Below, in pieces: positions 1-56,255 of a DNA stretch of 64,000 bases; within the stretch, counting starts at the first letter, position 1, and every line of letters starts with the position of its first letter. The DNA is taken from contig CANQVE010000008.1 in assembly GCA_947627205.1 (NCBI GenBank), positions 6,944 to 70,943 on the forward strand. Reading direction: 5' to 3'. The DNA is from an uncultured Clostridia bacterium. Lineage in GTDB: Bacteria; Bacillota; Clostridia; Oscillospirales; Ruminococcaceae. The translations under genes and the position numbers were made by a program. The notes beneath the pieces are model-generated. The model had not been told where the DNA came from, ran no database searches, and saw nothing but the letters and a program-made list of their open reading frames with translations.

Positions 1-501
1 CTGGATGAGGCGGGAGAACGCTTTGAAAAAGGGAAGATGTTCCTCCCCCAGCTTATACGCGCGGCAGGAGCGGCGCAGGCGGCGTTTGACGAGGTAAAGA
101 CGGCAATTTCCAAAAACGGCGGCGAAAACAAAGCGAGAGGGAAAGTTGTCCTTGCGACGGTAAAGGGCGACGTTCACGATATAGGAAAGAACATTGTCAA
201 AACGTTGCTTGAGAATTACGGATTTGAAGTAATCGACCTCGGAAAAGACGTTGAATACGAGGCTGTAGCGGACGCCGCCGAAAAGACGGGCGCAAAGCTC
301 GTAGGGCTTTCGGCGCTTATGACGACGACGCTTAAAAGCATGGAAAACACTATAAAGCTCATCAGAGAGCGCGGCATTGACTGCAGGATAGTCGTGGGCG
401 GAGCGGTCCTTACTCCCGAATATTCGGCAAAGATAGGCGCAGACTATTATGCAAAGGACGCAAAGGAAACGGTAGATATAGCGAAAAAAGTTTATGAATA
501 A
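1..501 (+). CDS. metH: Cobalamin-dependent methionine synthase, C-terminal cap + B12-binding domain (5' truncated by window edge)
   Basis: Frame open from base 1 (LDEAGERFEKGKMFLPQ); B12-binding motif ATVKGDVHDIGKNIV, then LSALMTTT and VGGAV. Confidence 0.85.
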   Translation: MDEAGERFEKGKMFLPQLIRAAGAAQAAFDEVKTAISKNGGENKARGKVVLATVKGDVHDIGKNIVKTLLENYGFEVIDLGKDVEYEAVADAAEKTGAKLVGLSALMTTTLKSMENTIKLIRERGIDCRIVVGGAVLTPEYSAKIGADYYAKDAKETVDIAKKVYE

Positions 502-506
502 AAAAC

Positions 507-540
507 AACGCGGAGAATTTTTATTTCTCCGCGTTTTATT
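507..540. terminator. Bidirectional intrinsic terminator between convergent metH and hpf
   Basis: Arms AACGCGGAGA (507-516) / TCTCCGCGTT (526-535), A-tract before and T-rich tail after. Confidence 0.75.
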
Positions 541-556
541 TATTGCTTCGTTATGG

Positions 557-1078
557 TCAATTGTCCTCGGGAACAAGCACCGCATAATTTCCGTCGTCGC
601 GCTTGTAAACAACGTTTACAATGCCCGTCGTTGCATTCTTGAACATAAAGAAATTGTGTCCGAGGAGATCCATTTGCAGGATAGCTTCTTCAACGGTCAT
701 AGGTTTCATACGGAAATTCTTGTAACGTATAACTTCATAATCGGGCTCTTCTGGCTCGGGATCAAGTCCCGCAAAAGCGTTTTCACGCAGATTTTTTTCG
801 ACTCTTGTCTTATGCTTTCTTATCTGACGGATAATGCGGTCGATCGTAACGTCAAGCGCGTCGTTCTTATCTCTCGCGGTCTCTTCTGCGCGGTAAATTA
901 TCCCGTTATAGCTTACCGTAAGCTCCAGGACTATCTGTTCGCGCCTTTCGGATAAAGTTATTTTTGCTTCTGCTTCTTCGGGGAAAAACCTGTCGAGCTT
1001 TGCCGCAAACTTCTTTTCCGCATAATCGGTAAATGCCTGTGAGATGTTTATTTTCTTTGCCGTAATCGTAACCTTCAT
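557..1078 (-). CDS. hpf: Ribosome hibernation promoting factor (long HPF/RaiA)
   Basis: N-terminal HPF domain (DALDVTIDRIIRQIRKHKTR) plus C-terminal MKPMTVEEAILQMDLLGHNFFMF...VVYKRDDGNY. Confidence 0.92.
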   Translation of the reverse strand: MKVTITAKKINISQAFTDYAEKKFAAKLDRFFPEEAEAKITLSERREQIVLELTVSYNGIIYRAEETARDKNDALDVTIDRIIRQIRKHKTRVEKNLRENAFAGLDPEPEEPDYEVIRYKNFRMKPMTVEEAILQMDLLGHNFFMFKNATTGIVNVVYKRDDGNYAVLVPEDN

Positions 1079-1216
1079 CGGTCAGACCTTCTTCCGTTAA
1101 ATATTAGGCTTTAGCCTTATTTAATTTTATCATATTCTTTAAATTATTGCAAGAGTGTAAGAACATTTTCAGTCATTTTTCACAAAAAACTAATGAAAAT
1201 TTCTCTATCTGTTTTT

Positions 1217-1621
1217 TTATTTAAGAATAAGCGAATGATTGTAAGAGTCGGTTTTGTCGTTTATCTGCTCGGTTATCATATCGAAAAGAGTTTTCCCCTC
1301 GTGCATTTCGGCGGACTTTATTTTGCCGAGTATTTTTTCGCGGTTTGAGGGGTGGCATTTTTCGAGCAGTTTTTTATAATACCGTGCCGTCGCTTCATAG
1401 CCAAGCTCCATACGGCTTTTTTCGGAGTTCAGCCACACAAATTCCGCCGATTCTCCGTATTCAAAAACGCCGAATCCCCCGCGCAAAAGGTCGTGAAAAG
1501 CGTCGAAATTATGTCCCGCTCTGAAACCCGTATCATTTGTAAGAACGCGCTGCGCCTCGTCAAAAAACTCGTCGAGCGAAGAAAAGTTGTTTCCGTTTAT
1601 TTCAATTGTAATAATGCCCAT
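1217..1621 (-). CDS. Barstar-family protein
   Basis: IEINGNNFSSLDEFFDE...GHNFDAFHDLLRGGFG...WLNS matches the barstar pattern. Confidence 0.7.
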   Translation of the reverse strand: MGIITIEINGNNFSSLDEFFDEAQRVLTNDTGFRAGHNFDAFHDLLRGGFGVFEYGESAEFVWLNSEKSRMELGYEATARYYKKLLEKCHPSNREKILGKIKSAEMHEGKTLFDMITEQINDKTDSYNHSLILK

Positions 1622-1872
1622 AATTACTCCTCAATTATTATTAGTTTCAATTACAATAATTATAACATTATTTTCATTTTATTTCAAGTGAAATATAGCA
1701 AATAATCATGTGCAATTGTCAATAAATAAAACAGATTTGGTAAAAATAAATAAACTAAGTCAAGTCAATATGTCTGAACTTACAAAAATTGAAAATTAAA
1801 AACAAAAGTCTTGATTTTAATATACGGCAGATGATAAAATAAAGACGGAAAACTTCAGAAAAGGAGAACAAA

Positions 1873-2775
1873 ATGATATATACAATAACGTTCAATCCTG
1901 CGGTAGATTATGTAATGCGCATAGGAAAAATAACGGCGGGCATTGTAAACCGCTCCGAAAGCGAGGAAATATATTTCGGGGGAAAGGGAATAAATGTTTC
2001 GATAGTGCTGAACGAGCTTGGGGTAAAATCGACAGCGCTCGGATTTGTCGCGGGATTTACGGGAAAAGCGATTGAAAGCGGTCTTTCAGAAGCGGGAATA
2101 AAAACGGACTTTATTTTTCTTAAAAGCGGATATTCGAGGATAAACGTAAAGATAAAATCGACCGAAGAAACGGACATAAACGGCAGAGGACCGGATATCC
2201 CCGAAGAAGCGATAGATGAACTGTTGAAAAAACTGAAAGATATAAAAGACGGAGACACGCTTGTTTTAGCGGGGAGCGTTCCGAAAAGCCTGCCCGAAAA
2301 TATTTACGAAAAGATACTCGAAGAAATATCGGACAGGAAAATAAAGATAGTTGTCGATGCGGAGAAAGATCTTTTGTTAAACGCTCTTAAATACAAGCCG
2401 TTTCTGGTAAAGCCGAACAGCCGTGAGCTGGGAGATATGTTCGGCGTTTCGCTCAACACCAAAGAGGAAATAAATCTTTACGCAAGAAAGCTGAAAGAAA
2501 TGGGAGCGCAGAATGTTCTCGTTTCAATGGCGGGCGACGGAGCGTTATTGCTTGATGAAAACGGCGAAACGCATATATGCGGGGTTTGCAGGGGAGAAGT
2601 CAGAAACTCGGTCGGCGCGGGCGACTCAATGGTCGCGGGATTTATCGCGGGTTCTGCAAACGGAGACTATGAATACGCTTTGAAGCTCGGCACAGCCGCG
2701 GGCGGCGCAACGACCTTTTCCGAGGGCATAGGGAAAAGAGAGGAAATTTTAAGGCTTTTGGAACAGCTGGGGTGA
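1873..2775 (+). CDS. pfkB: 1-phosphofructokinase (PfkB family)
   Basis: MIYTITFNPAVDY, GGKGINVS, KPNSREL, NSVGAGDSMVAGF motifs. Confidence 0.9.
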   Translation: MIYTITFNPAVDYVMRIGKITAGIVNRSESEEIYFGGKGINVSIVLNELGVKSTALGFVAGFTGKAIESGLSEAGIKTDFIFLKSGYSRINVKIKSTEETDINGRGPDIPEEAIDELLKKLKDIKDGDTLVLAGSVPKSLPENIYEKILEEISDRKIKIVVDAEKDLLLNALKYKPFLVKPNSRELGDMFGVSLNTKEEINLYARKLKEMGAQNVLVSMAGDGALLLDENGETHICGVCRGEVRNSVGAGDSMVAGFIAGSANGDYEYALKLGTAAGGATTFSEGIGKREEILRLLEQLG

Positions 2776-2822
2776 ATGATTTTTAAAAGTATCCATGCTC
2801 GGTCGGGGCGGGGAGAAGCGCA

Positions 2823-3923
2823 TTAGTGGTTATTTCGATGATAGAAGAAGCTTATGACGCTTCTTATATACCTGTATATTTCGGCATCTTCAAGATTATG
2901 CTTCAGCATATCTTCTTTTCTAACAGAATAGCAGAGATTTTGCGGTGTACAGCCTTTCTTAATGGAGAAAAGATATGAATTCATAATTTCTGCTGTCACG
3001 ACCTCATATGGGAACAGCATTACGTTTGTTCCAATTGCGCCGATGACAAGAGTTGCCATATCCTTTATCTCCGCACACTTGTTGAAGATTTTTATGACTG
3101 CTTCTCGCGAATCAATACCCGCAATACTTTCGCTTTTATCATCATTGGAGACCATTCCAGAGTTGGCGATAAGCAACAGATTTACGGAAAATTGTCGAAA
3201 TACTTTGGGCATAATCGGGATACTCACCGTGATTATATCACCAAGGCAAAGAGGAGTTCCGTCTTTGTGGAGCTCTCCTATAGCGGTGTCCATTTTTGCC
3301 TGTAAACTCTCTGGCATAACGCCGAATTCGTCCTTTAAATATTGACACACGCTCCAAAAAATGCCCGATTTTGTAAGCTTGCTTATTTTCCCTGATACAT
3401 CCATACCCATAGCGAAGTATGTCGTGCCTGCGTCAACTTTCCCATTGTCGATCAGAAATTTCATGTTTGAATCAAAATTACCCTTTATTAGTGAGAACTT
3501 GTGCCCGTGAGAATCTATATCTGTTTCGAAATATCTTTCTCCCATGCTTATTTCGTTAATGAATCCTTTAAGGTTTAGGTTGTTTATATCGAAGCGCTGC
3601 GAACGTCCAATCTTGTATCTCAGCTCATCTGCTATATCATTTTCCGCTGTGTTATCAATTTTAAGCACCCATATTTTTCGATGTATCTTCTTGGCTCGCT
3701 CAATCTCATCATAAACATAATCAGAAGTCTCCGTGTTTTTGGACAGGAGCAGTAGAAAGATACTGCACGCCTGTATATTCTCAATCTCTGCTAATGTGTG
3801 GTCTTCCGTACCCGGTAAGATATCCTCGGGGGCAATCCAGGTCTCAATTCCATGCAGTTCAAGTATGTTTCTTATGAGCAGAGCGATACTGTGGTCTTTA
3901 CTGCTATGACTAATAAATATCAT
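2823..3923 (-). CDS. TIR domain fused to a probable Macro-like (ThsA-Macro/DUF6430-like) domain
   Basis: Likely start ATG at 3923 (TGA-G-ATG coupling to upstream gene); IFISHSSKD...TWIAPEDILPG...IFLLLLSKN..SDYVYDEIERA is a TIR with the catalytic Glu; C-terminal SLIKGNFD...LLLIANS...LVIGAIGTN resembles a Macro fold (less certain). Confidence 0.7.
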   Translation of the reverse strand: MIFISHSSKDHSIALLIRNILELHGIETWIAPEDILPGTEDHTLAEIENIQACSIFLLLLSKNTETSDYVYDEIERAKKIHRKIWVLKIDNTAENDIADELRYKIGRSQRFDINNLNLKGFINEISMGERYFETDIDSHGHKFSLIKGNFDSNMKFLIDNGKVDAGTTYFAMGMDVSGKISKLTKSGIFWSVCQYLKDEFGVMPESLQAKMDTAIGELHKDGTPLCLGDIITVSIPIMPKVFRQFSVNLLLIANSGMVSNDDKSESIAGIDSREAVIKIFNKCAEIKDMATLVIGAIGTNVMLFPYEVVTAEIMNSYLFSIKKGCTPQNLCYSVRKEDMLKHNLEDAEIYRYIRSVISFFYHRNNH

Positions 3924-3924
3924 C

Positions 3925-4353
3925 TCAAATATCCCTAAAATCGTCGTTCCACATAGACATCCACGCATTTGTTTCGGCGTTTGGGGTCACAAGTACCTTA
4001 TCGTTTCCACCGGGAACTTTTGAGAAAATGATTCGTGTCCCAGGTAGATATTTCGATACATATGGTTCGTTACTGTTTATGACATAGAGGTCGCCCTTCC
4101 CAAATTTGTATTCCGTTTTCCCGTTCAGCAGAAGCAACTTGACCTCACCCTCAATCACATAGTTATACTCGGTATTGAACGAATGATAATGTGGCATATC
4201 TGCTTTAAATCCTTGGTAATTGCTAACTCCTATTTCGTATCCGTCCGTAGGTATATGTCTTACTCCGTTTTCGCTATGAAGGTAGCCGCAAAGGTATACC
4301 CTATTGGAAGCCGTAAGACCTTTTTCTATATCCTTACCATAAACAATATTCAT
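3925..4353 (-). CDS. Cupin-domain protein
   Basis: PHYHSFNTEYNYVIEGEV...FGKGDLYVINSNEPY double-stranded beta-helix motifs with metal-binding HxH...E. Confidence 0.75.
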   Translation of the reverse strand: MNIVYGKDIEKGLTASNRVYLCGYLHSENGVRHIPTDGYEIGVSNYQGFKADMPHYHSFNTEYNYVIEGEVKLLLLNGKTEYKFGKGDLYVINSNEPYVSKYLPGTRIIFSKVPGGNDKVLVTPNAETNAWMSMWNDDFRDI

Positions 4354-4412
4354 TTAAATGTACTCCCTTTTCTTCGAATCAAAAACGTGTGGTTGATGTC
4401 AATTATTCAAAA

Positions 4413-4690
4413 AAAGCCTGTCGGCATTGATTTCGAGTTCGTTTGAAAGAATGTAGTTTAAGACGAATATACCGTTAGGGTAAATCCATAATTTTCGCTG
4501 GAAACGGACATTTATCCGTCCTCGATATATTTTTCAGCTTTGCAACGTATGCCGTGCCGAAATCCTTATCGAACGTCCTAATGAACTTCTGCAAACAAAT
4601 CCATCCACTAATCTCATGCGGGGAATAATCTTTCCGCTGAGCACCTCATATAACGGAATTTCCTCGTAATCGTATGAGCCGACAGGCTTT
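4413..4690. repeat. ~280-bp non-coding segment bounded by a perfect 13-bp inverted repeat
   Basis: AAAGCCTGTCGGC (4413-4425) / GCCGACAGGCTTT (4678-4690); T-run follows the distal arm on the minus strand. Confidence 0.6.
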
Positions 4691-4697
4691 ATTTAAT

Positions 4698-5732
4698 TCA
4701 ATTTTTTATTTGCGGTTTGCACAAGACTGTTAAGCCTTTCATAGCCTCTTCAACCGCAACAGCGCAAGCGACTGTAGCGCCTACCATGGGGTTGTTGCCC
4801 ATGCCGATAAGTCCCATCATCTCAACATGCGCGGGAACTGACGAAGAACCCGCAAACTGCGCGTCGGAGTGCATGCGTCCCATTGTATCGGTCATACCGT
4901 AAGAAGCAGGGCCCGCCGCCATGTTGTCGGGGTGGAGGGTACGTCCCGTGCCGCCGCCCGATGCAACGGAGAAGTATTTCTTGCCCTTTTCAACGCACTC
5001 TTTCTTGTAAGTGCCTGCAACGGGGTGCTGGAAACGGGTGGGGTTTGTGGAGTTGCCCGTAATTGAAACGTCAACGCCCTCTTTCCACATTATCGCAACG
5101 CCCTCTGTAACGTCGTTCGCGCCGTAGCAGTTTACCTTTGCACGAAGTCCCGTAGAATAAGCCTTGCGGAATACTTCTTTAACTTCGCCGGTGTAGTAGT
5201 CCATTTCGGTTTCAACGTATGTAAAGCCGTTTATGCGCGCGATTATTTGCGCCGCGTCCTTTCCGAGACCGTTAAGTATAACTCTCAGCGGTTCTTTGCG
5301 GACCTTGTTTGCCTTTTCGGCAATTCCTATAGCACCCTCAGCCGCCGCGAAACTCTCGTGACCTGCAAGGAATGCAAAGCACTTTGTGTCCTCTTCGAGG
5401 AGCATCTTTCCGAGGTTTCCGTGTCCGAGACCAACTTTTCTCTGATCAGCAACAGAGCCGGGAATGCAGAACGCCTGAAGTCCCTCTCCGATAGCCGCAG
5501 CCGCGTCAGCAGCCTTTGTGCAGCCTTTCTTTATCGCAATAGCGCAGCCTACGGTATAAGCCCACTTTGCGTTTTCAAAGCAGATAGGCTGAATGCCCTC
5601 GGTTATCTTATAAGGATCAAAGCCTTTAGCCAGGCAGATATCGCGGCATTCTTCTATAGTGTTTATTCCGTATTCTTTCAAGACAGCGAGGATCTGCTTT
5701 TCGCGTCTTTCATAAGATTCAAATAAAGCCAT
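4698..5732 (-). CDS. GGGtGRT family protein (function unknown)
   Basis: Signature SVASGGGTGRTLHPDNMAAGPASYGMTDTMGRMHSDAQFAGSSSVPAHVEMMG. Confidence 0.9.
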   Translation of the reverse strand: MALFESYERREKQILAVLKEYGINTIEECRDICLAKGFDPYKITEGIQPICFENAKWAYTVGCAIAIKKGCTKAADAAAAIGEGLQAFCIPGSVADQRKVGLGHGNLGKMLLEEDTKCFAFLAGHESFAAAEGAIGIAEKANKVRKEPLRVILNGLGKDAAQIIARINGFTYVETEMDYYTGEVKEVFRKAYSTGLRAKVNCYGANDVTEGVAIMWKEGVDVSITGNSTNPTRFQHPVAGTYKKECVEKGKKYFSVASGGGTGRTLHPDNMAAGPASYGMTDTMGRMHSDAQFAGSSSVPAHVEMMGLIGMGNNPMVGATVACAVAVEEAMKGLTVLCKPQIKN

Positions 5733-5749
5733 TCTTCGTTACCTCCCCA

Positions 5750-6442
5750 TTACTGCTTTCTCGGATCAATTATCTTGACCGCGTCGGCAACTCTTCCGTA
5801 CTGACCTTGAGCTTTTTCATAGGCTTCTTTAACGTCCATTCCGCCCTTTATAAAGTCCATCATCTTGCCGAAGTTTATAAACTTATAGCCGATTATCTCA
5901 TTGTCCTCATTCAGAGCAAGTCCCGTTACATATCCGTCTGTCATTTCAAGATAGCGGGGACCTTTTTTAAGAGTGCCGTACATTGTGCCTATCTGCGAGC
6001 GTAAGCCCTTTCCGAGGTCCTCAAGACCTGCGCCTATTGTAAGACCGTCTTCGGAGAAAGCGGACTGCGAGCGTCCGTAAACTATCTGTAAGAACAGTTC
6101 TCTCATAGCCGTGTTTATAGCGTCGCATACAAGGTCGGTATTGAGCGCCTCGAGAATAGTTCTGCCGGGGAGTATCTCCGCCGCCATAGCCGCAGAATGT
6201 GTCATACCCGAACAGCCGATCGTTTCAACGAGAGCCTCCTGTATAACACCGCCCTTTACGTTGAGCGACAGCTTGCACGTTCCCTGCTGGGGAGCGCACC
6301 AGCCTATGCCGTGCGTAAAACCGTTGATGTCTGAAATTTCCTTTGCCTTTACCCATTTAGCTTCTTCGGGAATAGGCGCAGCGCCGTGAGCAACGCCCTG
6401 TGCCACAGGACACATTGCTTCGACTTCATGAGAATAAGTCAT
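5750..6442 (-). CDS. IscU/NifU-like Fe-S scaffold-family protein, usual partner of GGGtGRT
   Basis: GWCAPQQGTCKLSLNVK.G.IQEALVETIGCSGMTHSAAMA...NTDLVCDAIN with conserved Cys. Confidence 0.8.
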   Translation of the reverse strand: MTYSHEVEAMCPVAQGVAHGAAPIPEEAKWVKAKEISDINGFTHGIGWCAPQQGTCKLSLNVKGGVIQEALVETIGCSGMTHSAAMAAEILPGRTILEALNTDLVCDAINTAMRELFLQIVYGRSQSAFSEDGLTIGAGLEDLGKGLRSQIGTMYGTLKKGPRYLEMTDGYVTGLALNEDNEIIGYKFINFGKMMDFIKGGMDVKEAYEKAQGQYGRVADAVKIIDPRKQ

Positions 6443-6620
6443 TTTAATTTCTCCTTTTTTCCAATATTTAGCAGTTTATCTGCCATACAACTTTATTATA
6501 CAATATTTTTTTCAATATTTCAAGTACATAATGACTAAAATTTTAATTGATAACAATATGTAGGTATGTTGATTAAGACTTGTTTCGGAATTTGGCGCTA
6601 TTCGGGCGGAGGGGGGTAGG

Positions 6621-6843
6621 CAAGTATACAGTGTACAGTGGATAGTGTACAGCATTGGTGTCCTCTTCGCGGACAGTATTTAGATTGTTTTAAGTCGATA
6701 GGCACACGAACAACCTTTTATGGGTACATTTTAAAACGTTTCGGTTTGATAACAATCAAAAATGTCCGCATAGCGTTTTGCGCGAAGCGCATAATGCGTG
6801 GACAACCATAACTGACTACTTTACACTTTACACTGTATACTGT
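6621..6843. repeat. Heptamer-ended palindromic interspersed repeat, copy A
   Basis: Ends AGTATACAGTGTACAGTG / CACTTTACACTGTATACT; core TAGATTGTTTTAAGTCGATAGGCACAC...AAAACGTTT...GATAACAATC shared with 10904-11130 (inverted) and 27322-27522. Confidence 0.8.
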
Positions 6844-6845
6844 GT

Positions 6846-7466
6846 CTAGATGGTGAAATCAAAAAACTCTTTTCCTTTCACCTCAAACCCGACATTTCCC
6901 GAACAGGCGTCTGTGAGTTCTGTTCTGAGCTTTTCCGAAAGCTCCTCTTTTACATAAACGGCGAGCTTAACGCCGTTTCCGAAATCCTCGTCTGCAATCT
7001 TTGCGCCCAGCTCGTCAAATATCCTCGCTAACTTCCCGTAAAACGAATAGTCTACGGTTATCTCGGTTTTCACCGCAAAAGCCATTTCCTTTATCTTCGC
7101 CATTCCCACGGCGTCCGCGGCGGCTTTCGTATACGCTCTCACAAGCCCGCCCGCGCCGAGCAGTATCCCGCCGAAATACCTCGTAACAACACAGCATACC
7201 CCGCTTAAACCCTCTTTTTGCAATACTTCGTATATCGGCACACCCGCCGTTCCTTGGGGTTCGCCGTCGTCCGAGTGACGGGAGGTCTTGTCCGTCAGAA
7301 TATACGCATAGCAGTTGTGGCGAGCCTTTCGGTTCGCCGCGCGTATTTCGTTTATAAATGCCGTCGCTTCTTCTTCGCTCGAAACGGGCGCAAGATAGCC
7401 TATAAACTCCGACTTCTTTTCCTCAAACCGTGACACAACGCGGCTTTCAATTGTCCTGTATTCCAT
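6846..7466 (-). CDS. yigZ: YigZ/IMPACT family protein
   Basis: EEKKSEFIG, ARHNCYAY, SDDGEPQGTAGVP, VVTRYFGGILLGAGGLVRAY. Confidence 0.9.
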   Translation of the reverse strand: MEYRTIESRVVSRFEEKKSEFIGYLAPVSSEEEATAFINEIRAANRKARHNCYAYILTDKTSRHSDDGEPQGTAGVPIYEVLQKEGLSGVCCVVTRYFGGILLGAGGLVRAYTKAAADAVGMAKIKEMAFAVKTEITVDYSFYGKLARIFDELGAKIADEDFGNGVKLAVYVKEELSEKLRTELTDACSGNVGFEVKGKEFFDFTI

Positions 7467-7567
7467 TTTACTCCTCGGGATATAACAAATTCACGCGCAT
7501 CACAAGACGCGCGTGAGCTTGTTTATAAACAAAATTAACAAAACGATATGAGCGTTTTAATACCAAA

Positions 7568-7771
7568 TTACTTTCCGAGATTATAACGCTTATTAAATCT
7601 GTCAACGCGTCCGCCGCTGTCAACGAGCTTCTGCTTGCCCGTGAAGAAAGGGTGGCACTTTGAGCAAATTTCAACTCTTATGTCTTTTTTGGTGGAACGT
7701 GTTTCAATAACGTTTCCGCAGGCACATCTGATAGTTGTCGCTTCGTATGCGGGATGAATACCCTCTTTCAT
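7568..7771 (-). CDS. rpmE: 50S ribosomal protein L31 (Zn-binding type)
   Basis: MKEGIHP...CACG...[30 protein letters not shown]; ATG at 7771 behind a GAGGTG RBS. Confidence 0.95.
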
Positions 7772-7892
7772 TCTTCTCACCTCACAAAAATATGCTGTGC
7801 ATAAATCACAAAAACAATTATAACATATTTGCCCCGAAAAATCAAGGGAATTTCAAAAAATATTATTATGTTATAATATACAAATTATTCCG

Positions 7893-9605
7893 TTAAATGC
7901 CGAGAATTTTGGTAAATTCAACGGACAATTCTTTCTGGATCTCAACAGCAATATCTCTTGCGGGAGCCTTTGTGGTATAGTAAACCTTTATCTTAGGCTC
8001 CGTGCCCGACGGTCTGATTATAATGCTCGCGTCATTTTCGAGGTTGTAGGTAATAACGTTCGACTTCGGGAGCTTTACTTCGCTCTTTGTTCCGTCGGCT
8101 TCTACTCTCTCGCTTGCCTTATAGTCGGTCGTAGCGAGGACTTTAAGACCGCCGATATTGTCGAGCTTTGTATTGCGGAGTCCCGCCATTATCTCGCTCA
8201 TCTTTGTCATTCCCGCTTCGCCCTCAAAGCCGAAGTTCTCAACTTTGTTGAGATATACGCCGTATTCGTCATAAAGACGAGCTCTCGCTTCTATCATTGA
8301 AATGCCCTTTGAGCGGTAGAACGCAGCCATTTCGCAGATAAGCATAGAAGCAACGACAGCGTCCTTGTCTCTTACATATCCGCCCGCAAGATAGCCGTAG
8401 CTCTCCTCAAAGCCGAATATATAGCGCTCTTCTTCGCCTGCCGCTTCGAGCAGACCTACCTGTTCGCCGATATACTTAAATCCCGTGAGGACTTCTCTAA
8501 GCTCTACTCCGTACTTTTTCGCAATTGCCTTTGTAATGTCGCTGGTTACAATTGTCTTTACAGCGACAGGGTTTTTCGGCATTCTTCCGAGCGCAAGACG
8601 TTCTCTGCAGACATATTCGAGCAGGAGAGCACCTGTTTCGTTTCCTGTAAACAGTTCGTAGCCGTCGCCGTCGGGAACGGCAATTCCCACTCTGTCGCAG
8701 TCGGGATCGGTCGCAAGCATAAGATCGGGCTTTTCCTTTTCGCAGAGCTTAAGACCAACTGCAAGAGCTTCTCTTATCTCGGGGTTCGGGAACGGGCAGG
8801 TCGGGAAGTTTCCGTCGGGATTTTCCTGCTCGGGAACAACTACAACGTCCTTTACGCCGATCTCGGAAAGTATTCTTCTGACAGGCTTGTTGCCCGTGCC
8901 GTTGAGCGGTGAGTAAACGACTTTCAGTCCGCTCTTTGCGACAACGTCGGTATGCAGGCTCTGTTCTCTTACTTTTGCGATATAAGCGTCGATAACGTCG
9001 TCGCCTATGTAGTTTATCATTCCGCTTTCGACCGCAGAATTAAAGTCCGCAGACTTTATACCGCTGAAAGTATCGATGTTATTTATTTTAGCAAGAACGG
9101 CGTCCGCCGCTTCGGAAGTCATCTGACAGCCGTCCGCGCCGTATACCTTATAGCCGTTGTATTTGGCAGGGTTATGAGAAGCAGTAACAACAATGCCCGC
9201 ACCGCATTTAAGATAGCGCACCGCCCACGAGAGCATGGGGGTAGGCATAAGCTCTTTGTAGATATGTACCTTTATGCCGTTTGCCGCAAGAACTTCCGCC
9301 GCGCACTGAGCGAAATATGTAGACTTTATACGGCTGTCATAGCCTATAGCGACTTTCTTTTCGAGACCGCTCGAAAGAATGTATTCCGCAAGTCCCTGGG
9401 TAGCCTTTTTTACGGTATAGACGTTCATTCGGTTTGTGCCTGCGCCGATAACGCCGCGCAGACCTGCCGTTCCGAATTCAAGCTCACGGTAAAAACGGTC
9501 GTTTATTTCTTCGGGTTTGTCTTTGATCTGTTCCAGCTCGGGTTTAAGATCGGGATCTTCGGTCGCCTTTTCGAGCCACAGTTCATATTCTTTACGGATA
9601 TCCAT
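7893..9605 (-). CDS. pgm: Phosphoglucomutase/phosphomannomutase
   Basis: FGTAGLRG, TASHNP active Ser loop, DPDCDR metal loop, GFEESYG, RPSGTEPKIK. Confidence 0.92.
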   Translation of the reverse strand: MDIRKEYELWLEKATEDPDLKPELEQIKDKPEEINDRFYRELEFGTAGLRGVIGAGTNRMNVYTVKKATQGLAEYILSSGLEKKVAIGYDSRIKSTYFAQCAAEVLAANGIKVHIYKELMPTPMLSWAVRYLKCGAGIVVTASHNPAKYNGYKVYGADGCQMTSEAADAVLAKINNIDTFSGIKSADFNSAVESGMINYIGDDVIDAYIAKVREQSLHTDVVAKSGLKVVYSPLNGTGNKPVRRILSEIGVKDVVVVPEQENPDGNFPTCPFPNPEIREALAVGLKLCEKEKPDLMLATDPDCDRVGIAVPDGDGYELFTGNETGALLLEYVCRERLALGRMPKNPVAVKTIVTSDITKAIAKKYGVELREVLTGFKYIGEQVGLLEAAGEEERYIFGFEESYGYLAGGYVRDKDAVVASMLICEMAAFYRSKGISMIEARARLYDEYGVYLNKVENFGFEGEAGMTKMSEIMAGLRNTKLDNIGGLKVLATTDYKASERVEADGTKSEVKLPKSNVITYNLENDASIIIRPSGTEPKIKVYYTTKAPARDIAVEIQKELSVEFTKILGI

Positions 9606-31892: not shown

Positions 31893-34286
31893 ATGGCTGA
31901 CGAAAATTTTCAAAAGATTTATAATCATTATGAGGGCGAAGCAAATAATAAGATAAGTTTTTATGTGACTGTCATTAAAGATTGGAATAAGCGCAGGGCA
32001 CAAATTACGGAGCAAATGACATTGGACGACTACATAGAACTTGTTGACTTTTTGGGCAATAAGTCAGGGGCGTTTGTTGAACTTAGTTCCCGTAATCCCG
32101 AACACTATATGATTTATAAAGATAAAGATGATGATAAATATAAAGATGATGATAAATATAAAGATAAAGATAATGATATATATTCCGTATCTAAGACGTA
32201 TTATACACCCGAAGAGTTAGAGACAAAAAATGCAGAAAATAAAAAGAGCAAAACTGTTAAGGTTAATAATGCTGAAGCTGAAAAAATTTTTAATGAACAT
32301 ATTCGCCCTTTGCTGAAGCTGGTTATCGATGCGTTTAATGAAAACGGATTTAAAGAGAATAAGACATTAGAAGATAGTTTATTAGACAACATAAAAGCTA
32401 GTATAACTAATATTATAACTAAACTGCAAAAATCTATTAATAATAAAACGTCGGATGAAATCAAAAAGAAAAAGGAAGCTATTATAAAAGCGTTGGAAAC
32501 AGCTAAAAATGAAGCAACCAAAGGAAATATAAAAACTAAACTCGTTAAAATGTCTGATAATAAAGACTATAATACAATAAACAAAAATATAAAAGAGATA
32601 ATATCTGAAATAGAGGAGATTGAAAATTTACTTAAACCCCCCACAGGTCCCACAGGTTTGAATGCTCTCGATCTTGTTCAGCACACTAAGCTCTATAAGG
32701 ATTACAGCGGAAAACAGCTGATCATAAAAATAATGGTTCTGGAATCTGCAAGATATGAATTGGTTCCCGAAAATGATAAAGGTAAATTTCCCGAAGAACT
32801 CAGATTCGCACTGCCGATTATACTTGAAAACGGTACAATAACCAGCCTTTATAAAAAACACGTTTCTGAAAACGATAAAGGTTTGACAACAACAAGAAAA
32901 TCTGCCGAAATTTTTAAAACGTTTAAAGAAAAATTGAAAAAAAAGTCCGCAGACAACCTCGAAAATAAACCCGCAGAAGCCACTGCAGAAACCCCCGGAG
33001 AACCCTCCGCAGAATTTAAACAATATGTTGCAATAGGCTATGTGCTTTGGGATATGGAACGCGGAGATATACTTGACGTTACGGACGAAACGCCGAACGT
33101 TATATACTACGGAAGTCCGGGAACAGGAAAAACTTATACCGTGACGCAGGGCATTAAAATGAACTTGATTTCTGACGGTAAGGGTGATAAAGAGAAAGAT
33201 TATTCGGTAACAGTTCAGTGCCACCCGGGATTTGGCTATGAAGAATTTGTAGAGGGACTTAAACCCGTTGGTTTTACAAGCAACGGCACGCTGAAGCTCG
33301 AACCGGTAAACGGAACTTTTAAAAACCTCTGTATTAGGGCAAGAAAACACCTAAACGAAAAATATTATTTTGTTGCCGACGAAATAAACCGCGCTAATCT
33401 TTCGGCTATGTTCGGAGAAACTCTCTCACTTCTGGAAACTGATTACAGGGATTTCAGAGAGCCAAGTGATAATAAGGTTGAACGCCAGACTATACGCAAG
33501 ACTATAGAAACCCCCATGTCACAGCTTACTGCGGTGTATTTCAACGATAAAATCAAGACTGCAAACGGCGACCAGTCTGTACTTAAAGAGATACTTGATG
33601 ACATCAGGGAAAAAGTCTACGAATGCGATTTGATATTCGGCGAGGGCGATAATAACAAGTGCAAACTTTCGGATTTGGATTGCAATGACAACGAGAAAAA
33701 AGCAAAAGCCCAAAAATTGGCGGGAAATCCTGAAAAGCTGGAGAAAATTGAAAACGTAGAATTCGGAATACCGAAGAACATTTACTTTATCGGCATGATG
33801 AATGACGTTGATAAAAGCATTGACGCGTTTGACCTTGCTCTGCGCAGGCGTTTCAAGTGGATAAGAAAAGACTGCGACTATGGAGTTCTGGAGAGTATGC
33901 TGGCAGATTGCGAAGCTGATTCAAAGATAAGATTCCGCAATGCATGCGAAAATTTGAACAACAGTATATCGGGCGGTGAATTGCGATTCGGGAAACCGTA
34001 TGAATTCGGTCACGCCTACTTCATGAAAATCAAGAATTATGTTAAAACAGACGGCGAGATAACAAAGGACTGCGTTAAAAAATTCTTTGCCGAACATCTT
34101 GAACCCGTTTTAAGAGAATACATCAGGTCTTTCAAAGATGAAAGCGAGATAGATTTACAGGTTAAAAGAATAAAGACAGCTTTTCTGAATGATATTGAAG
34201 AAGAAACAGGATTTGCGCCAGCTGACAGCACAGACCAACAGCAGAGTGATGATAACGATAAAAATGACGAAAAACCCGAAGAATAA
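31893..34286 (+). CDS. mcrB: McrB-family AAA+ GTPase with ~400-aa unrecognised N-terminal region
   Basis: YYGSPGTGKT Walker A, CHPGFGYEEFVEG, VADEINRANLS..FGE, MMNDVDKSI (NxxD), LALRRRF, FGHAYF. Confidence 0.85.
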   Translation: MADENFQKIYNHYEGEANNKISFYVTVIKDWNKRRAQITEQMTLDDYIELVDFLGNKSGAFVELSSRNPEHYMIYKDKDDDKYKDDDKYKDKDNDIYSVSKTYYTPEELETKNAENKKSKTVKVNNAEAEKIFNEHIRPLLKLVIDAFNENGFKENKTLEDSLLDNIKASITNIITKLQKSINNKTSDEIKKKKEAIIKALETAKNEATKGNIKTKLVKMSDNKDYNTINKNIKEIISEIEEIENLLKPPTGPTGLNALDLVQHTKLYKDYSGKQLIIKIMVLESARYELVPENDKGKFPEELRFALPIILENGTITSLYKKHVSENDKGLTTTRKSAEIFKTFKEKLKKKSADNLENKPAEATAETPGEPSAEFKQYVAIGYVLWDMERGDILDVTDETPNVIYYGSPGTGKTYTVTQGIKMNLISDGKGDKEKDYSVTVQCHPGFGYEEFVEGLKPVGFTSNGTLKLEPVNGTFKNLCIRARKHLNEKYYFVADEINRANLSAMFGETLSLLETDYRDFREPSDNKVERQTIRKTIETPMSQLTAVYFNDKIKTANGDQSVLKEILDDIREKVYECDLIFGEGDNNKCKLSDLDCNDNEKKAKAQKLAGNPEKLEKIENVEFGIPKNIYFIGMMNDVDKSIDAFDLALRRRFKWIRKDCDYGVLESMLADCEADSKIRFRNACENLNNSISGGELRFGKPYEFGHAYFMKIKNYVKTDGEITKDCVKKFFAEHLEPVLREYIRSFKDESEIDLQVKRIKTAFLNDIEEETGFAPADSTDQQQSDDNDKNDEKPEE

Positions 34287-34298
34287 AAGGATCGTGAT

Positions 34299-35768
34299 AT
34301 GGCAAAAGATATAAAAACATTTAAGGAATCTGCAAACAGCAATTTCTATAAACCGCCGTCAGCTGACAAGCTGAAAAAATCCAACTCGGGTTTGACAGGG
34401 TTGCTTAATAAGATATACGGCAGTCCTAAAGCGCAGAAATTCTATGTTAAAGGTCAGGGAGATTTTGAAAAGCGCGGATATAAACTTTTTGAACTTCAGT
34501 CTTTTGAAAGCAACGGTTTTTCAAAGAATTACGATGAAAGCCGTCTTGTATATGAATTGGCAATAACTGCGGACGAAGACAACAATTCAAAAAATTATTA
34601 TTATTTCAAAACAGGTCTGTATACGGGTTTTTTATACATCACCGTGAAAGACGAACGTTTATGCCTTGAGATCGATACGGGATACAGTGATATTTTCTTT
34701 CGGAGAATGTTGAACGTTGCGAATAATGTCTTTCTGGACAACACTTCAAGCGGTGCAAAAAGCGCAAAAGCAAATTCTCTGACAGGTCTGGTTAGCTTTA
34801 TGTTCCTTTCGAGATTTAAATCCGCATTTGCTATGGGTATGCCGTCTGAGTATAAAACTATAAACGAACACGGTTTTAACGTAAAGGGAAAGATCGACGT
34901 TAAAAAGTACATTCAAAAGGATATGCTTCTGGGCGGGGCGCTGTCGTATTCTTACAAACAGAGGCAATACGTTCAGGACGTGATCGACGTGCTGTATCTT
35001 GCAATGAAAACACTAAAGGAATCGGGCGAGATAAACACGGCGGATTATGAGAAATATTACCGCGAATTAAGACAAATGCGCTCAGATAAAACGGTGACGC
35101 ACGCCACTATTCACAATATCAGAAAACACCGTTCTCTTAATAATCCTTTGTACAACAGGTATAAAACTGCGCTGTACTTTGCGGAAATGGTTCTTGAAAT
35201 GAAAGAGGTATTTCATAACGACGAAAGCAGTGAAATGGGCTTTTCGGGATTTTTGCTCGACATTTCCCAGCTTTGGGAAGTATACCTTGTAAATCTGCTT
35301 AGGAAGCGTTTTGATAATGAGTATAATATATTAGCGCAGGAAGAACTCGAACTGTATAACGACGCTTTCTACAAAAGAACCAACAGACCTGATATTGTAA
35401 TTGAAACAAAGGACGGAGTGCCTGTTGCGGTGCTTGACGCTAAGTTTAAGAAAATGAATTATGATAAAGATGATGTTGACAGGGGCGATATGTTTCAGAT
35501 CCATTCATATACGGGATATTACAACGAACATAGCAAACTTACAGGAAACCCGCCCCTGCGTTTCAGCGCGCTTGTCTATCCGTCAAAAAGCGCCCCCGGT
35601 GTTCAGACATATTCGCCTTTATACGGTCTGAACAATGCCATAACTCAATTTGCGGTCGAGTATATATGTGTCAAAGATAATGACAACTTTGAAGATATTA
35701 AAAATTCTGAAGATGCGTTTCTTGACAGGATAGAACAGCTTCTTGAAAATAAGACCTCCGCGCTGTAA
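34299..35768 (+). CDS. mcrC: McrC-family PD-(D/E)xK nuclease subunit
   Basis: LLDISQLWEVYL, RPDIVI...VLDAKFK, DRGDMFQIHSY motifs; directly after mcrB. Confidence 0.82.
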   Translation: MAKDIKTFKESANSNFYKPPSADKLKKSNSGLTGLLNKIYGSPKAQKFYVKGQGDFEKRGYKLFELQSFESNGFSKNYDESRLVYELAITADEDNNSKNYYYFKTGLYTGFLYITVKDERLCLEIDTGYSDIFFRRMLNVANNVFLDNTSSGAKSAKANSLTGLVSFMFLSRFKSAFAMGMPSEYKTINEHGFNVKGKIDVKKYIQKDMLLGGALSYSYKQRQYVQDVIDVLYLAMKTLKESGEINTADYEKYYRELRQMRSDKTVTHATIHNIRKHRSLNNPLYNRYKTALYFAEMVLEMKEVFHNDESSEMGFSGFLLDISQLWEVYLVNLLRKRFDNEYNILAQEELELYNDAFYKRTNRPDIVIETKDGVPVAVLDAKFKKMNYDKDDVDRGDMFQIHSYTGYYNEHSKLTGNPPLRFSALVYPSKSAPGVQTYSPLYGLNNAITQFAVEYICVKDNDNFEDIKNSEDAFLDRIEQLLENKTSAL

Positions 35769-53176: not shown

Positions 53177-53340
53177 CGCCAACAGGTCTGATCAAACTAT
53201 ACACCGTAATTATACCACATTTAATGCTTTTCGTCAAGAGAAATATAGCATTGTTGAAAACTTTTTAATATATTTTGTCAAAAAACGGTTGAATACAAGT
53301 CTGATTTATGCTACAATATGAGAAAGGGGAGCATTTAAAT

Positions 53341-54735
53341 ATGAAATTCAGAATTATTGCCATTTTAATATTAGCTGTATTTATGTTTGCAGGGTGCGCA
53401 CAACAACGGGATATAAGCGAGCTTACTATATTTATCGCTGAAGAGAGCGGGTATGCAGGGAATAACAGTGATACGGAAAGTTCGAGCGAAGAGAGCGCGC
53501 CTGTGCTCGAGCCCGAAAAAAAGCCCGAAGAGCCCGAATATGCCGAATTTTTTAAGGAAATGAAAGTTCATACTCTTGAGCTTGAAATGGAACAAAAAGA
53601 TTGGAATTTCCTTTTGTATAACCCGTTTGCTAAACAATACAGAACAGCAAATGTAATTATTGACGGTGAAAGATATGACAACACCGCCATAAGGACGAGA
53701 GGAAATTCGACGCTTAAATCGGCTATAACAGAAAGCGGGATCTACCGCCCGCCGCTCAAGCTGAAGTTCGACAAGTATGTTGAGGACAGGACGTTTAAAG
53801 GGCTTGACGAGCTGGCGCTTTTAAATGTTGCGGGAGACAATTCTTATGCGCGCGAATATATAGGATATGAGGCGTTTCGTGTATTAGACCTGTGTGCGCC
53901 GTATGTTACATTCTTCAACATTTATATAAACGGAAAGCTCCACGGCTTTTATGTCGGAGTGGAAATAATAGACAACAGTTTTCTTGACCGCGTATTCGAC
54001 AGTCATAAGCACAGTCTGTATAAAGCCGACAACAATTCAACGCTTCTTACGAATATGGACTTTTCGGTTATGGAACAGAAAAAAGGAAGCGACACCAGCA
54101 AGACCGATCTAAAATATTTGACACAAGTCTTGGACGAAATGACGCTCGGCGAAAAGGGAAATATTGAGGATATACTTGACGTGGATTCGGTGCTGAAAAA
54201 TTTCGCGGTAAATGCCGTATTGCACAATTGGGACGACTATGCGGGATATTATGCTCATAACTATTATCTTTATCTGCATGACGGGAAGTTTTATTTTATC
54301 CCGTGGGATATGAACCAGATATGCTTTCAGTGGCAAAGACATTTTACCGACAGCGACGGCTCAAAGCAGGATATCATCACGCCCGTAACGGGAGGCGCTT
54401 CGGTCTCACAGCGCCCGCTGGTAAATAAGCTCCTTTCGGTAAATGAATATTATCTGAAGTATCTTGATTATTGCGAACAGCTTAATGCGTGGCTGAAAGA
54501 ACTTGACGAAAGCAATAGGCTCAATGATATAAAAGATATGCTGGACGAAAATGTAAAAAACGATCCCACCAGATATTACGGCTATTATGATTTCGTCCGT
54601 GAATTCAGCAAATCATATTCCTATGGGCTGGCTTATTTTATTCACGACCGCTCGGCTTATCTTACAAAACGGATAGAACAGATACGCACGGAAAACAAAA
54701 ATCCCATAACGGGCTTAGAGCTTATTGCGTCATAA
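53341..54735 (+). CDS. CotH kinase-family lipoprotein 1
   Basis: FMFAG-C lipobox; IRTRGNST, KLKFDKY, DNSYAREY, HNYYLY..GKFYFIPWDMN. Confidence 0.85.
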   Translation: MKFRIIAILILAVFMFAGCAQQRDISELTIFIAEESGYAGNNSDTESSSEESAPVLEPEKKPEEPEYAEFFKEMKVHTLELEMEQKDWNFLLYNPFAKQYRTANVIIDGERYDNTAIRTRGNSTLKSAITESGIYRPPLKLKFDKYVEDRTFKGLDELALLNVAGDNSYAREYIGYEAFRVLDLCAPYVTFFNIYINGKLHGFYVGVEIIDNSFLDRVFDSHKHSLYKADNNSTLLTNMDFSVMEQKKGSDTSKTDLKYLTQVLDEMTLGEKGNIEDILDVDSVLKNFAVNAVLHNWDDYAGYYAHNYYLYLHDGKFYFIPWDMNQICFQWQRHFTDSDGSKQDIITPVTGGASVSQRPLVNKLLSVNEYYLKYLDYCEQLNAWLKELDESNRLNDIKDMLDENVKNDPTRYYGYYDFVREFSKSYSYGLAYFIHDRSAYLTKRIEQIRTENKNPITGLELIAS

Positions 54736-54795
54736 TTCAATGCATTTACGGCACTATTATTCGTATATATGACTTACAGACTTTAAAGGAGCATT

Positions 54796-56145
54796 ATGAA
54801 AAAATTCCATGCACTAGCCTTGGCAATGACCGTGTTATTGCTGTCGGGGTGCCGCGGCAATACTAAAGATGTTCCGCTTGAACTGATAATAAGCAGTCAG
54901 GCAGAAAGCTCCGATACCGAAATAATTGACAATAATGATGATGAACCAAATTCGGGCTACGGCTTTTCCAAGGAAGAAAAGGAGCCCGAATATGTCGGTT
55001 TTTTCAAGGAAACAGCCGTTCATACCATAGATTTTCAAATGCCCGCTTCCGATTGGGACTATTTTATAAACCACCCTCTGGCAAAGACCTATAGAACTGT
55101 TGATGTTGTTATTGATGGCGAAATGTATGAAAACGCAGGTATACGCACAAGAGGGAATACTTCTCTTTTAGCATACATTGATTATACGAAAATGCGCCCG
55201 CCGTTTGAAATAAAATTCGATAAATATATCGACGGCAGGCTGTTTTTGGGACTTGACGAGCTTAGCCTTTTGAACGTTGTTGACGACAGAGCGTTTTTGC
55301 GCGATTACATCGGCTATGAAGCGTTCAGGGCAATAGACGGTTTTGCTCCTTATGTGACGTTTTTCAATATCACGGTAAACGGAAAACTTCACGGTCTGTA
55401 TGTCGGAGTTGAATCGGTTGACAGCAGTTTTCTTGACCGAGTTTTCAACAGCCATAAGCACAATCTTTATAAAAGCGAAACGCAGACAACGCTCCTGCCG
55501 ACTATGAGGAAAAGTGCAGTTTCCCAGCAAAAGGGGAGCGACGAGAGCAGAGCCGACCTTAATTACCTTATAAAAACGCTCGATACAATGAAGCTCGGTG
55601 AAAAGGAAAATATCGAGGACATTTTAGACGTGGATTCTGTCCTCAAATATCTCGCTGTAAATGCCGTATTGCATAATTGGGACAGCTATGCGGGATACTA
55701 TGCGCATAATTTTTACATGTATATAAACGACGGAAAATTTTATTTTATACCGTGGGATATGAACGAGGTATGCTTGCAATGGCAAAGGCAATATGAGCCG
55801 AGCGACGGCTCAAGGGAAGATATTGCTTCGCCCATAACGGGAGATATTTCCGTTTCACAGCGTCCTCTGGTAAATAAACTGCTCGCGGTAGACGAATATT
55901 ATAATAAGTATCTAGACTATTGTTCGATACTCAACGAATGGCTAAAGGGCATTGACGAAAGCGGTTGGCTGAATGATATGCATGATATGCTTGATGAATA
56001 TGTAAAAAACGATCCCACCAAATTCTATGACTATTCATCATTTAACAATCAGTTCAATAACGCCTATTATTACGGTATTTCATACTTTATCCACGACCGC
56101 ACGGCTTATCTCACAAAAAGGCTTAATGAGCTTCGCCGCGAATAA
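54796..56145 (+). CDS. CotH kinase-family lipoprotein 2
   Basis: LLLSG-C lipobox; GIRTRGNTS, HNFYMY..FIPWDMN. Confidence 0.85.
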   Translation: MKKFHALALAMTVLLLSGCRGNTKDVPLELIISSQAESSDTEIIDNNDDEPNSGYGFSKEEKEPEYVGFFKETAVHTIDFQMPASDWDYFINHPLAKTYRTVDVVIDGEMYENAGIRTRGNTSLLAYIDYTKMRPPFEIKFDKYIDGRLFLGLDELSLLNVVDDRAFLRDYIGYEAFRAIDGFAPYVTFFNITVNGKLHGLYVGVESVDSSFLDRVFNSHKHNLYKSETQTTLLPTMRKSAVSQQKGSDESRADLNYLIKTLDTMKLGEKENIEDILDVDSVLKYLAVNAVLHNWDSYAGYYAHNFYMYINDGKFYFIPWDMNEVCLQWQRQYEPSDGSREDIASPITGDISVSQRPLVNKLLAVDEYYNKYLDYCSILNEWLKGIDESGWLNDMHDMLDEYVKNDPTKFYDYSSFNNQFNNAYYYGISYFIHDRTAYLTKRLNELRRE

Positions 56146-56255
56146 AAATATTTTATTAAATTTTTCTGCAACTTTTTCGACATTAGAAAAGTATTTATTT
56201 TAGAAACGTCATTTGGAAATTTTATAAAAAGCTCGGAATTTATAAGGGGAAAATT

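Follow-up and report, generated by a model that had tools for sequence, protein, structure and literature searches.

Two translationally coupled genes of an uncultured clostridial bacterium encode a small cupin and a 366-amino-acid (aa) protein in which an N-terminal TIR domain is joined to a C-terminal domain of Macro fold. The pair lies on the reverse strand of a 64,000-nucleotide (nt) stretch of contig CANQVE010000008.1, referred to here as the window, whose source is an uncultured bacterium of rabbit gut metagenomes. We favor the explanation that the pair is a two-gene conflict module of the abortive-infection type, probably directed against phages and belonging to a family not yet described; we put the probability of this explanation at about 0.5. 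An undescribed defense module had also been proposed in the first-pass annotation of this DNA, and that proposal is supported, since the pair is conserved as a unit and some of the homologous loci lie among defense or mobile genes. The architecture likewise falls outside any named system, as suspected there: PADLOC matched nothing in it beyond the TIR domain, and our literature search returned no paper combining a cupin with Thoeris and none using the term "TIR-Macro." The word "cupin" is absent from the available portions of the text and supplements of a recent survey of 29 Thoeris configurations.

The cupin and TIR-Macro genes strictly co-occur. A search of 5.8 billion clustered proteins recovered only 18 full-length relatives of the TIR-Macro protein (33 to 41% identity), and a cupin gene was found immediately 5′ of the TIR-Macro gene in every locus with upstream DNA (16/16), with further loci in agreement. 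Altogether, the pair is conserved across more than 17 distinct loci, all from gut or rumen Clostridia. The gap between the cupin and its partner gene ranged from −4 to +6 nt in 11 distinct homologous junctions. Translational coupling had first been noticed at the TGA-G-ATG junction of the window, the coordinates and sequence of which proved exact (Table 1), and the conserved pairing is far beyond chance. In the GTDB species set, 8 loci were found among 185,579 species genomes, with hosts assigned to Christensenellaceae, Oscillospiraceae, Lachnospiraceae, Dorea, and Ruminococcaceae bacterium FB2012, again all gut or rumen Clostridia. The two proteins have also diverged together: cupins group by partner type, and pairwise distances between cupins correlate with those between Macro-like domains (r = 0.85; Mantel P ≤ 0.0005; 21 pairs), including within the TIR class (r = 0.71). 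Mean pairwise identity was 57% for the cupin and 49% for the partner.

The N-terminal domain of the 366-aa protein is a TIR domain. AlphaFold2 (AF2) modeled it as an alternating β/α fold, and residues 2 to 95 matched Pfam TIR_2 (E = 4.4 × 10−13; 50.2 bits, cutoff of 28). TIR_2 was matched in 18 of the 19 members of the TIR-Macro family and Pfam ThsB_TIR in 16 of the 19. Among PADLOC models, the window TIR matched SAVED-TIR best (2 × 10−8) and ThsB about equally (2.4 × 10−8), while its best sequence match in the PDB was Cat1, a TIR-CARF effector (E = 3.5 × 10−5). Residue E73, the predicted catalytic glutamate, is located in the motif SDYVYDEIERA, is kept in all 18 full-length homologs, and aligns with the glutamate of the Cat1 motif SDWCWDELEQA, in agreement with the earlier statement that the TIR retains this residue. 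The window protein has no hydrophobic segment.

The C-terminal half was assigned by structure. Residues ~128 to 366 had no match in Pfam, NCBIfam, or PADLOC and none in the PDB by phmmer, and none of the 19 members matched a Pfam Macro-type family at E ≤ 1. Because sequence searches matched nothing beyond the TIR domain, the Macro fold was recognized only by structure prediction and Foldseek. The AF2 model of the full protein, generated from 19 sequences, had a mean predicted local distance difference test score (pLDDT) of 85, with residues 140 to 345 mostly between 80 and 95. Its top Foldseek matches in the PDB were macroH2A1.1, the PARP14/15 macrodomains, a MacroD-type domain from Oceanobacillus, and Af1521 (E = 2.5 × 10−7 to 1 × 10−5; probability 1.00; target-normalized template modeling score of 0.55 to 0.69); SPX entries in the same list are macro-carrier fusion constructs. 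A Macro-like C-terminal half had been predicted from the sequence, and the model and Foldseek comparison confirm the fold; by sequence, the domain is a new Macro family. A specific kinship to the Macro domain of Thoeris ThsA, as the accompanying suggestion had it, was not shown: sequence comparison gave no match to it, and the 50 best Foldseek matches do not include a ThsA entry. PDB profile searches likewise returned no ThsA chain, and none of these searches compared the domain directly with type II ThsA sequences.

Conserved positions in the Macro-like domain are consistent with a binding site. Domain profiles of the TIR class and of a sister class with transmembrane (TM) segments, described below, matched a single element among PDB sequences, loop 2 of the PARP14/15 macrodomains, and this match was weak (E = 0.06 to 1.1). 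In the alignment, GA(M/I)GTN of the family corresponds to aIGTG of PARP14/15, and in a set of 36 domains spanning the TIR, TM, and fused classes, G295, G298, T299, and N300 are each conserved at 94% or more. Across these three classes, N153, G173, D175, G187, N254, S255, Y306, S333, R335, and D338 are, like the four loop residues, at least 92% conserved. This pattern is compatible with one common ligand pocket, and the glycine-rich loop together with N153, D175, N254, and S255 is compatible with binding of ADP-ribose or a derivative.

The Macro-like domain also occurs with other putative effector parts. Its profile retrieved 66 proteins from 1.84 billion representatives; the candidate members P0099 and P0118 were rejected as spurious, being β-propeller proteins. 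Proteins of the TM-Macro class are ~285 to 340 aa long; their N terminus contains one or two strongly hydrophobic segments, predicted to be TM, and the Macro-like domain makes up the rest. In three proteins (P0085, P0086, and P0096), a homolog of the window cupin is fused in front, giving a cupin-2TM-Macro polypeptide. Unfused TM-Macro genes have a cupin directly 5′ as well. At locus L024, a cupin with the C terminus ...NPGGNDKV...W...W ends 5 nt before the TM-Macro gene, and the same cupin-then-TM-Macro order was found at L027 to L029, L032, and L038 to L041 (hhalign probability of 99.7% for the L038 partner). No TIR gene was detected within ~6 kb of the TM-Macro sister loci. A third, abundant cupin clade (P0183), which occurs in 75 or more collection blocks of human gut origin, has a different partner: the cupin lies 12 nt 3′ of a 378-aa CAP12/Pycsar-type TIR protein (L034:5853-7408, with the TIR gene at 5853-6989; also L031 and L035 to L037). 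The N terminus of this protein matched PF10137 (1.3 × 10−23), the PADLOC CBASS model "Effector TIR" (2.8 × 10−25), and Cap12 in the PDB (4 × 10−13). At L037, the TIR gene is probably a pseudogene, since it is split into open reading frames (ORFs) of 115 and 264 aa. In the human gut, this CAP12-TIR/cupin variant is flanked by IS21, IS256, and IS481 transposases.

The exchange of the N-terminal part bears directly on the division of labor between the two genes. Because a TM hairpin is unable to make a signal, the N-terminal TIR or TM part is best read as an effector that can be exchanged, with the cupin as the partner that stays the same. The first-pass annotation had instead pictured a signal-producing TIR and a signal-receiving Macro domain within one polypeptide, which the retention of the cupin where a TM hairpin replaces the TIR makes less likely. 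Developed fully, such an explanation would describe a self-contained Thoeris-like protein whose TIR senses infection and makes an ADP-ribose (ADPR)-derived signal, whose Macro domain receives it, and whose cupin is an accessory modifier or downstream effector. The window TIR does match ThsB about as well as SAVED-TIR, ThsB_TIR is widespread in the family, and the Macro domains of type II Thoeris receive a TIR-made signal. However, the hairpin takes the place of the TIR on the same Macro/cupin pair, the soluble 142-aa cupin lacks the features of a killing effector, and the third class joins the cupin to a TIR of the CBASS/Pycsar effector type. We consider a self-contained Thoeris-like protein unlikely.

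The cupin itself is a small single-domain barrel with a predicted metal site. Residues 54 to 97 matched Pfam Cupin_2 (32.4 bits; cutoff of 27.2), and the AF2 model is a single cupin barrel (pLDDT of 94.5) whose nearest solved structures by Foldseek are small metal-dependent cupins, most of which act on sugars, among them KdgF and archaeal phosphomannose isomerase (E ~5 × 10−6). The family comprises 146 clusters in a cupin profile search, each of 115 to 174 aa. H55, H57, and E62, the predicted metal ligands, align with the HxH...E motif of solved cupins and, together with N60, are invariant in alignments of 31 and of 21 cupin sequences that span all partner classes. The cupin-superfamily motif 1, G-x5-HxH-x3,4-E-x6-G, is present in full, with G69 invariant too. 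A motif-2 histidine, which would supply the third or fourth metal ligand, is absent from the aligned cupins of all partner classes, and the invariant Y98 stands in its place, opposite the motif-2 histidine of archaeal phosphomannose isomerase 7zvm in the alignment. K112, P114, G115, G116, D118, and K119 are invariant across all partner classes; the loop as a whole, K112-x-P-G-G-(N/D)-D-K119, as well as N64, W131, and W135, is invariant or nearly so, and K101 is invariant. The family thus shares the single-domain barrel and motif 1 with KdgF, the archaeal Cupin_2 phosphomannose isomerases, and RemF but differs from them in the tyrosine in place of the motif-2 histidine, the K-x-PGG(N/D)DK loop, the C-terminal W-x3-W helix, and a constant linkage to an effector-type gene. 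Identity to solved cupins is ~20% or less.

These conserved residues look like an enzyme site or a metal-dependent ligand site rather than a partner-specific interface, and we favor chemistry or ligand binding because the metal site is invariant across partner classes. The distinction matters for a second explanation, in which the pair would resemble a toxin-antitoxin system and use no small-molecule signal. Binding of the cupin would hold a TIR-Macro or TM-Macro toxin inactive until infection or loss of the cupin released it, and the Macro domain would be a docking or oligomerization surface or would sense the ADPR product as feedback. The layout is that of type II systems, with a small upstream gene coupled to a larger gene for a toxic domain through the short gaps described above; the cupin is the better conserved of the two proteins, cupin and Macro-like domain diverge together strongly, and the cupin-TM-Macro fusions imply 1:1 proximity. 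Against this, the invariant metal site and K-x-PGG-DK loop persist in all three classes, even with a partner that has no detectable Macro domain. Because the site is invariant over three partner classes, an intrinsic ligand or chemistry of the cupin is a better account of it than an interface specific to one partner. Nor did Pfam match any DNA-binding domain typical of type II antitoxins (helix-turn-helix [HTH], ribbon-helix-helix, or AbrB) in the cupin. A toxin-antitoxin-like pair is possible but less probable than the module that we favor.

In the favored explanation, an abortive-infection-type module, the 366-aa protein would be the effector. We read it so because the cupin is retained throughout, whereas the N-terminal part may be a TIR, a 2TM hairpin, or a Cap12-type TIR. 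Known signal-activated suicide effectors, such as TIR-SAVED, TIR-STING, PycTIR, and Cat1, are built in this way, with a TIR or TM domain at the N terminus and a nucleotide-sensing domain at the C terminus. Once activated, the TIR would destroy NAD+ by means of E73. The Macro-like domain would act as the switch by binding a small molecule of the ADP-ribose type or an ADP-ribosylated partner, and the cotranslated cupin would be the constant partner that controls this switch. Most likely, the cupin would be an enzyme or sensor dependent on a metal, and upon infection it would make the Macro ligand, convert it, or remove it; it might also sense a phage product or inhibit the effector directly. The occurrence of cupin-2TM-Macro fusions favors a cis-acting, 1:1 relationship between cupin and Macro domain. 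A more far-reaching form of the same explanation, which we regard as doubtful, would make the cupin a new immune signal enzyme that, upon infection, makes or converts an ADP-ribose-type molecule without a TIR, CD-NTase, or cyclase. Its product would be read by a new family of Macro sensors wired to interchangeable TIR or membrane effectors. In a variant of this form, a phage enzyme would ADP-ribosylate the cupin as a decoy substrate, and the Macro domain would detect this modification.

The closest known system is type II Thoeris, which consists of a ThsB TIR and a 2TM-Macro effector (ThsA/ThsC) responding to a His-ADPR signal; in the 297-aa ThsA_amylo, the TM region spans residues 1 to 82 and the Macro domain residues 83 to 297 (Sabonis et al., bioRxiv 10.1101/2024.01.03.573942; Shi et al., PMC11204291). 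Both systems are two-gene operons with an effector bearing a C-terminal Macro fold, for which we propose here the same role of ligand sensor. The TM-Macro sister proteins match ThsA_amylo in layout and size (~300 aa), and both have the same generic structural neighbors (Oceanobacillus MacroD and Capsaspora/human macroH2A). The differences are as follows. The partner here is a cupin, and there is no separate ThsB TIR gene; the window TIR is instead fused to the Macro-like domain, replacing the TM hairpin, such that the layout of 2TM and a C-terminal Macro domain is not that of the window protein and is seen only among the sister proteins. In addition, the Macro-like part matched no PADLOC or Pfam model, Macro models included. 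By the features tested, which do not extend to a direct sequence comparison with type II ThsA, the pair is not a member of Thoeris. Type I Thoeris ThsA (SIR2-SLOG) follows a logic like the one proposed here, an NAD+-destroying domain fused to a binder of an ADPR-derived ligand, but the window pair has TIR for SIR2, Macro for SLOG, a cupin partner, and no separate ThsB.

Similarities extend to the effectors in which a TIR is joined to a sensor, namely TIR-SAVED, TIR-STING (CBASS Cap12), PycTIR (Pycsar), and Cat1 (type III CRISPR). These proteins also have an N-terminal TIR with a catalytic glutamate and a C-terminal sensor, and the third cupin clade partners a bona fide TIR of the Cap12/PycTIR type. 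The sensor fold is different, being Macro rather than SAVED, STING, CARF, or cyclic nucleoside monophosphate binding. So is the partner: no CD-NTase, pyrimidine cyclase, or Cas10 gene was found among the called genes flanking at least 12 distinct loci, and the cupin is the only conserved neighbor. We classify the sensor family and the type of partner as new and ligand-gated TIR or TM effectors of abortive infection as already known.

Genomic context is suggestive of defense and not conclusive as evidence for it. The genes that flank the pair differ from locus to locus, and no metabolic neighbor is conserved. One locus has a Schlafen/AlbA-like ATPase with Fic and DUF4007 proteins nearby, and another has a DUF4238 protein. 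In mouse-gut Christensenellaceae (L048 to L051, positions ~1-8000), a patatin gene adjoins the cupin/TIR-Macro pair, and the region a few kilobases away looks like a variable hotspot, with an HTH gene, a C5 DNA methylase, and an endonuclease with a FokI cleavage domain in two contigs and an unannotated 798-aa protein in the other two. At L020 (6209-15539), the pair sits amid genes for a 358-aa TIR protein with a GNAT acetyltransferase, an 810-aa protein with TIR and tetratricopeptide repeats, and a 1,159-aa AAA+/M41 protease, a neighborhood that looks like a TIR-rich island.

A further explanation is a housekeeping or metabolic role without any function in defense, in which the pair would act on NAD+ or ADP-ribose. 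In one example, it would serve NAD turnover: the Macro domain would be a hydrolase, and the cupin would be a sugar isomerase for the ribose that results. The window pair does lie among housekeeping genes and adjoins the sugar kinase gene pfkB, the closest structural relatives of the cupin act on sugars, and some macrodomains are hydrolases. The comparison across loci argues otherwise: flanking metabolic genes are not shared, only 8 of 185,579 species genomes have the pair, an extremely sparse and patchy spread, a membrane hairpin can take the place of the TIR, and several loci lie beside restriction-modification genes, other TIR proteins, insertion sequence elements, and similar genes. We judge a metabolic pair quite improbable.

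Several observations nevertheless weigh against an anti-phage module of the kind we favor. In canonical macrodomains and in the Thoeris ThsA Macro domain, the aspartate of a G-D pair reads the N6 of adenine; the corresponding residues 148 and 149 are G-D in most members of the family and G-N in the window protein. We know of no cupin that makes a nucleotide signal, and a cis-acting regulator would explain the cupin-2TM-Macro fusions no less well than a synthase of a diffusible signal would. Comparison by hhalign detected no Macro-like domain in the C-terminal part of the CAP12-TIR partner (probability of 0.4 from a single sequence), for which reason the three classes may not share one ligand. 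At the level of the genome, the window pair is flanked by housekeeping genes, and it was present in all nine contigs that encode an identical pfkB protein (9/9), so that no presence/absence polymorphism was seen. Searches of IMG/VR, of phages in INPHARED, and of plasmids in PLSDB recovered no member of the family. A crude bulk comparison of neighbors with controls by PADLOC and Pfam was too noisy to weigh in either direction, and we rely on the individual loci instead: PADLOC matched 112 families among 132 neighbor proteins, compared to 18 among 42 housekeeping controls; many of the neighbor matches were to generic ATPase or HTH models, and housekeeping proteins such as DnaG, dGTPase, and ABC ATPases matched too.

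If the pair is anti-phage, it would represent a family with a cupin fold as a conserved upstream component, and we found no described defense system that uses a cupin in this way. It would also add a new family of Macro sensors that trigger either the depletion of NAD+ or damage to the membrane, with a ligand that could be a new ADP-ribose-derived messenger. The natural swaps (TIR, 2TM, fusion, and Cap12-type TIR) provide a comparative series on how one sensor controls different killing domains. Were the cupin indeed a signal enzyme, the system would join CBASS/Pycsar, type III CRISPR, and Thoeris as a fourth class of second-messenger defense. All members of the family come from Clostridia of the gut and rumen, which are poorly covered by defense screens that rely on Escherichia coli and Bacillus hosts.

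Table 1. Features of the cupin/TIR-Macro locus (window positions; residue numbers refer to the protein named).
Feature	Positions	Strand	Basis or remark
pfkB kinase gene	1873-2775	+	Convergent with the gene pair
TIR-Macro gene	2823-3923	-	ORF, 366 aa plus stop
Macro-like domain, TIR-Macro residues ~128-360	2844-3542	-	AF2 and Foldseek; new sequence family with Macro fold
G295-A-I-G298-T299-N300 of TIR-Macro, equivalent of Macro loop 2 (diphosphate/ribose-binding glycine loop)	3024-3041	-	Profile alignment
TIR domain, TIR-Macro residues 1 to ~125	3549-3923	-	Pfam, PADLOC, and PDB matches
E73 codon, predicted catalytic Glu of the TIR NADase site	3705-3707	-	Homolog alignment
TGA-G-ATG junction	3921-3927	-	Cupin stop 3927-3925, G 3924, TIR-Macro ATG 3923-3921
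AGGGA, Shine-Dalgarno-like	3932-3936	-	8 nt 5′ of TIR-Macro ATG, within cupin 3′ end
Cupin gene	3925-4353	-	ORF, 142 aa plus stop
Cupin loop K112-V-P-G-G-N-D-K119, family signature	3997-4020	-	Alignment
Cupin Y98 codon	4060-4062	-	Invariant Tyr at canonical third His position of cupin motif 2
Cupin motif 1, H55-x-H57-x4-E62, predicted metal ligands	4168-4191	-	Cupin alignments
AAGGGAG, Shine-Dalgarno-like	4363-4369	-	9 nt 5′ of cupin ATG; sequence reading
GGGtGRT-family gene	4698-5732	-	Same strand, upstream of the gene pair

The placement of the pair between housekeeping genes, convergent on pfkB and downstream of the GGGtGRT-family gene, agrees with what had been annotated (Table 1). A mechanical ORF list offers an alternative in-frame ATG at 3968 for the TIR-Macro gene; we take the start to be 3923 because all 18 full-length homologs begin with MIFISH. 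The AGGGA within the 3′ end of the cupin gene probably serves as an internal ribosome-binding site for TIR-Macro. The module had been described as AT-rich, and its GC content (40.2%) is indeed below that of the immediate neighbors (46 to 51%), but in 22% of segments of this size the GC content is no higher (window mean, 43.0 ± 3.4%), so that the impression is only weakly borne out. A scan for promoters and terminators around the operon returned nothing convincing, and no RNA-seq run containing the locus was found.

The spacer between the GGGtGRT-family gene and the cupin gene measures 343 nt and contains a 17-nt inverted repeat (4409-4425 and 4678-4694; 94% complementary). This repeat closes a predicted RNA structure of ~290 nt (4409-4694, reverse strand) with a minimum free energy of −98.3 kcal/mol (z = −6.7 relative to shuffled sequences), and a U7 run lies downstream of it, ~55 nt 5′ of the cupin ATG. 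The structured RNA matched no Rfam family. It is identical only in contigs of the same strain, and most of the regions 5′ of the cupin in 19 further loci show no unusual degree of structure; we therefore rejected the spacer as a third, RNA component of the module, given its lack of conservation in other loci. Candidate identities for it are a long terminator or insulator, an unknown noncoding RNA, and a decayed insertion.

Elsewhere in the window, a barstar-family ORF of 134 aa (barnase inhibitor; PF01337, E = 3.8 × 10−6) is located at 1217-1621 on the reverse strand, with no obvious ribonuclease partner adjoining. The forward strand encodes a McrBC-like restriction pair at 31893-35765, in which the gene for a 797-aa AAA_5 protein precedes that for a 489-aa McrC-family protein (PF10117, E = 1.6 × 10−32). 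Three tandem paralogous ORFs of ~445 to 475 aa occupy positions 53308-57590 on the forward strand and are probably the three CotH kinase-family proteins recorded in the bulk Pfam scan of the window.

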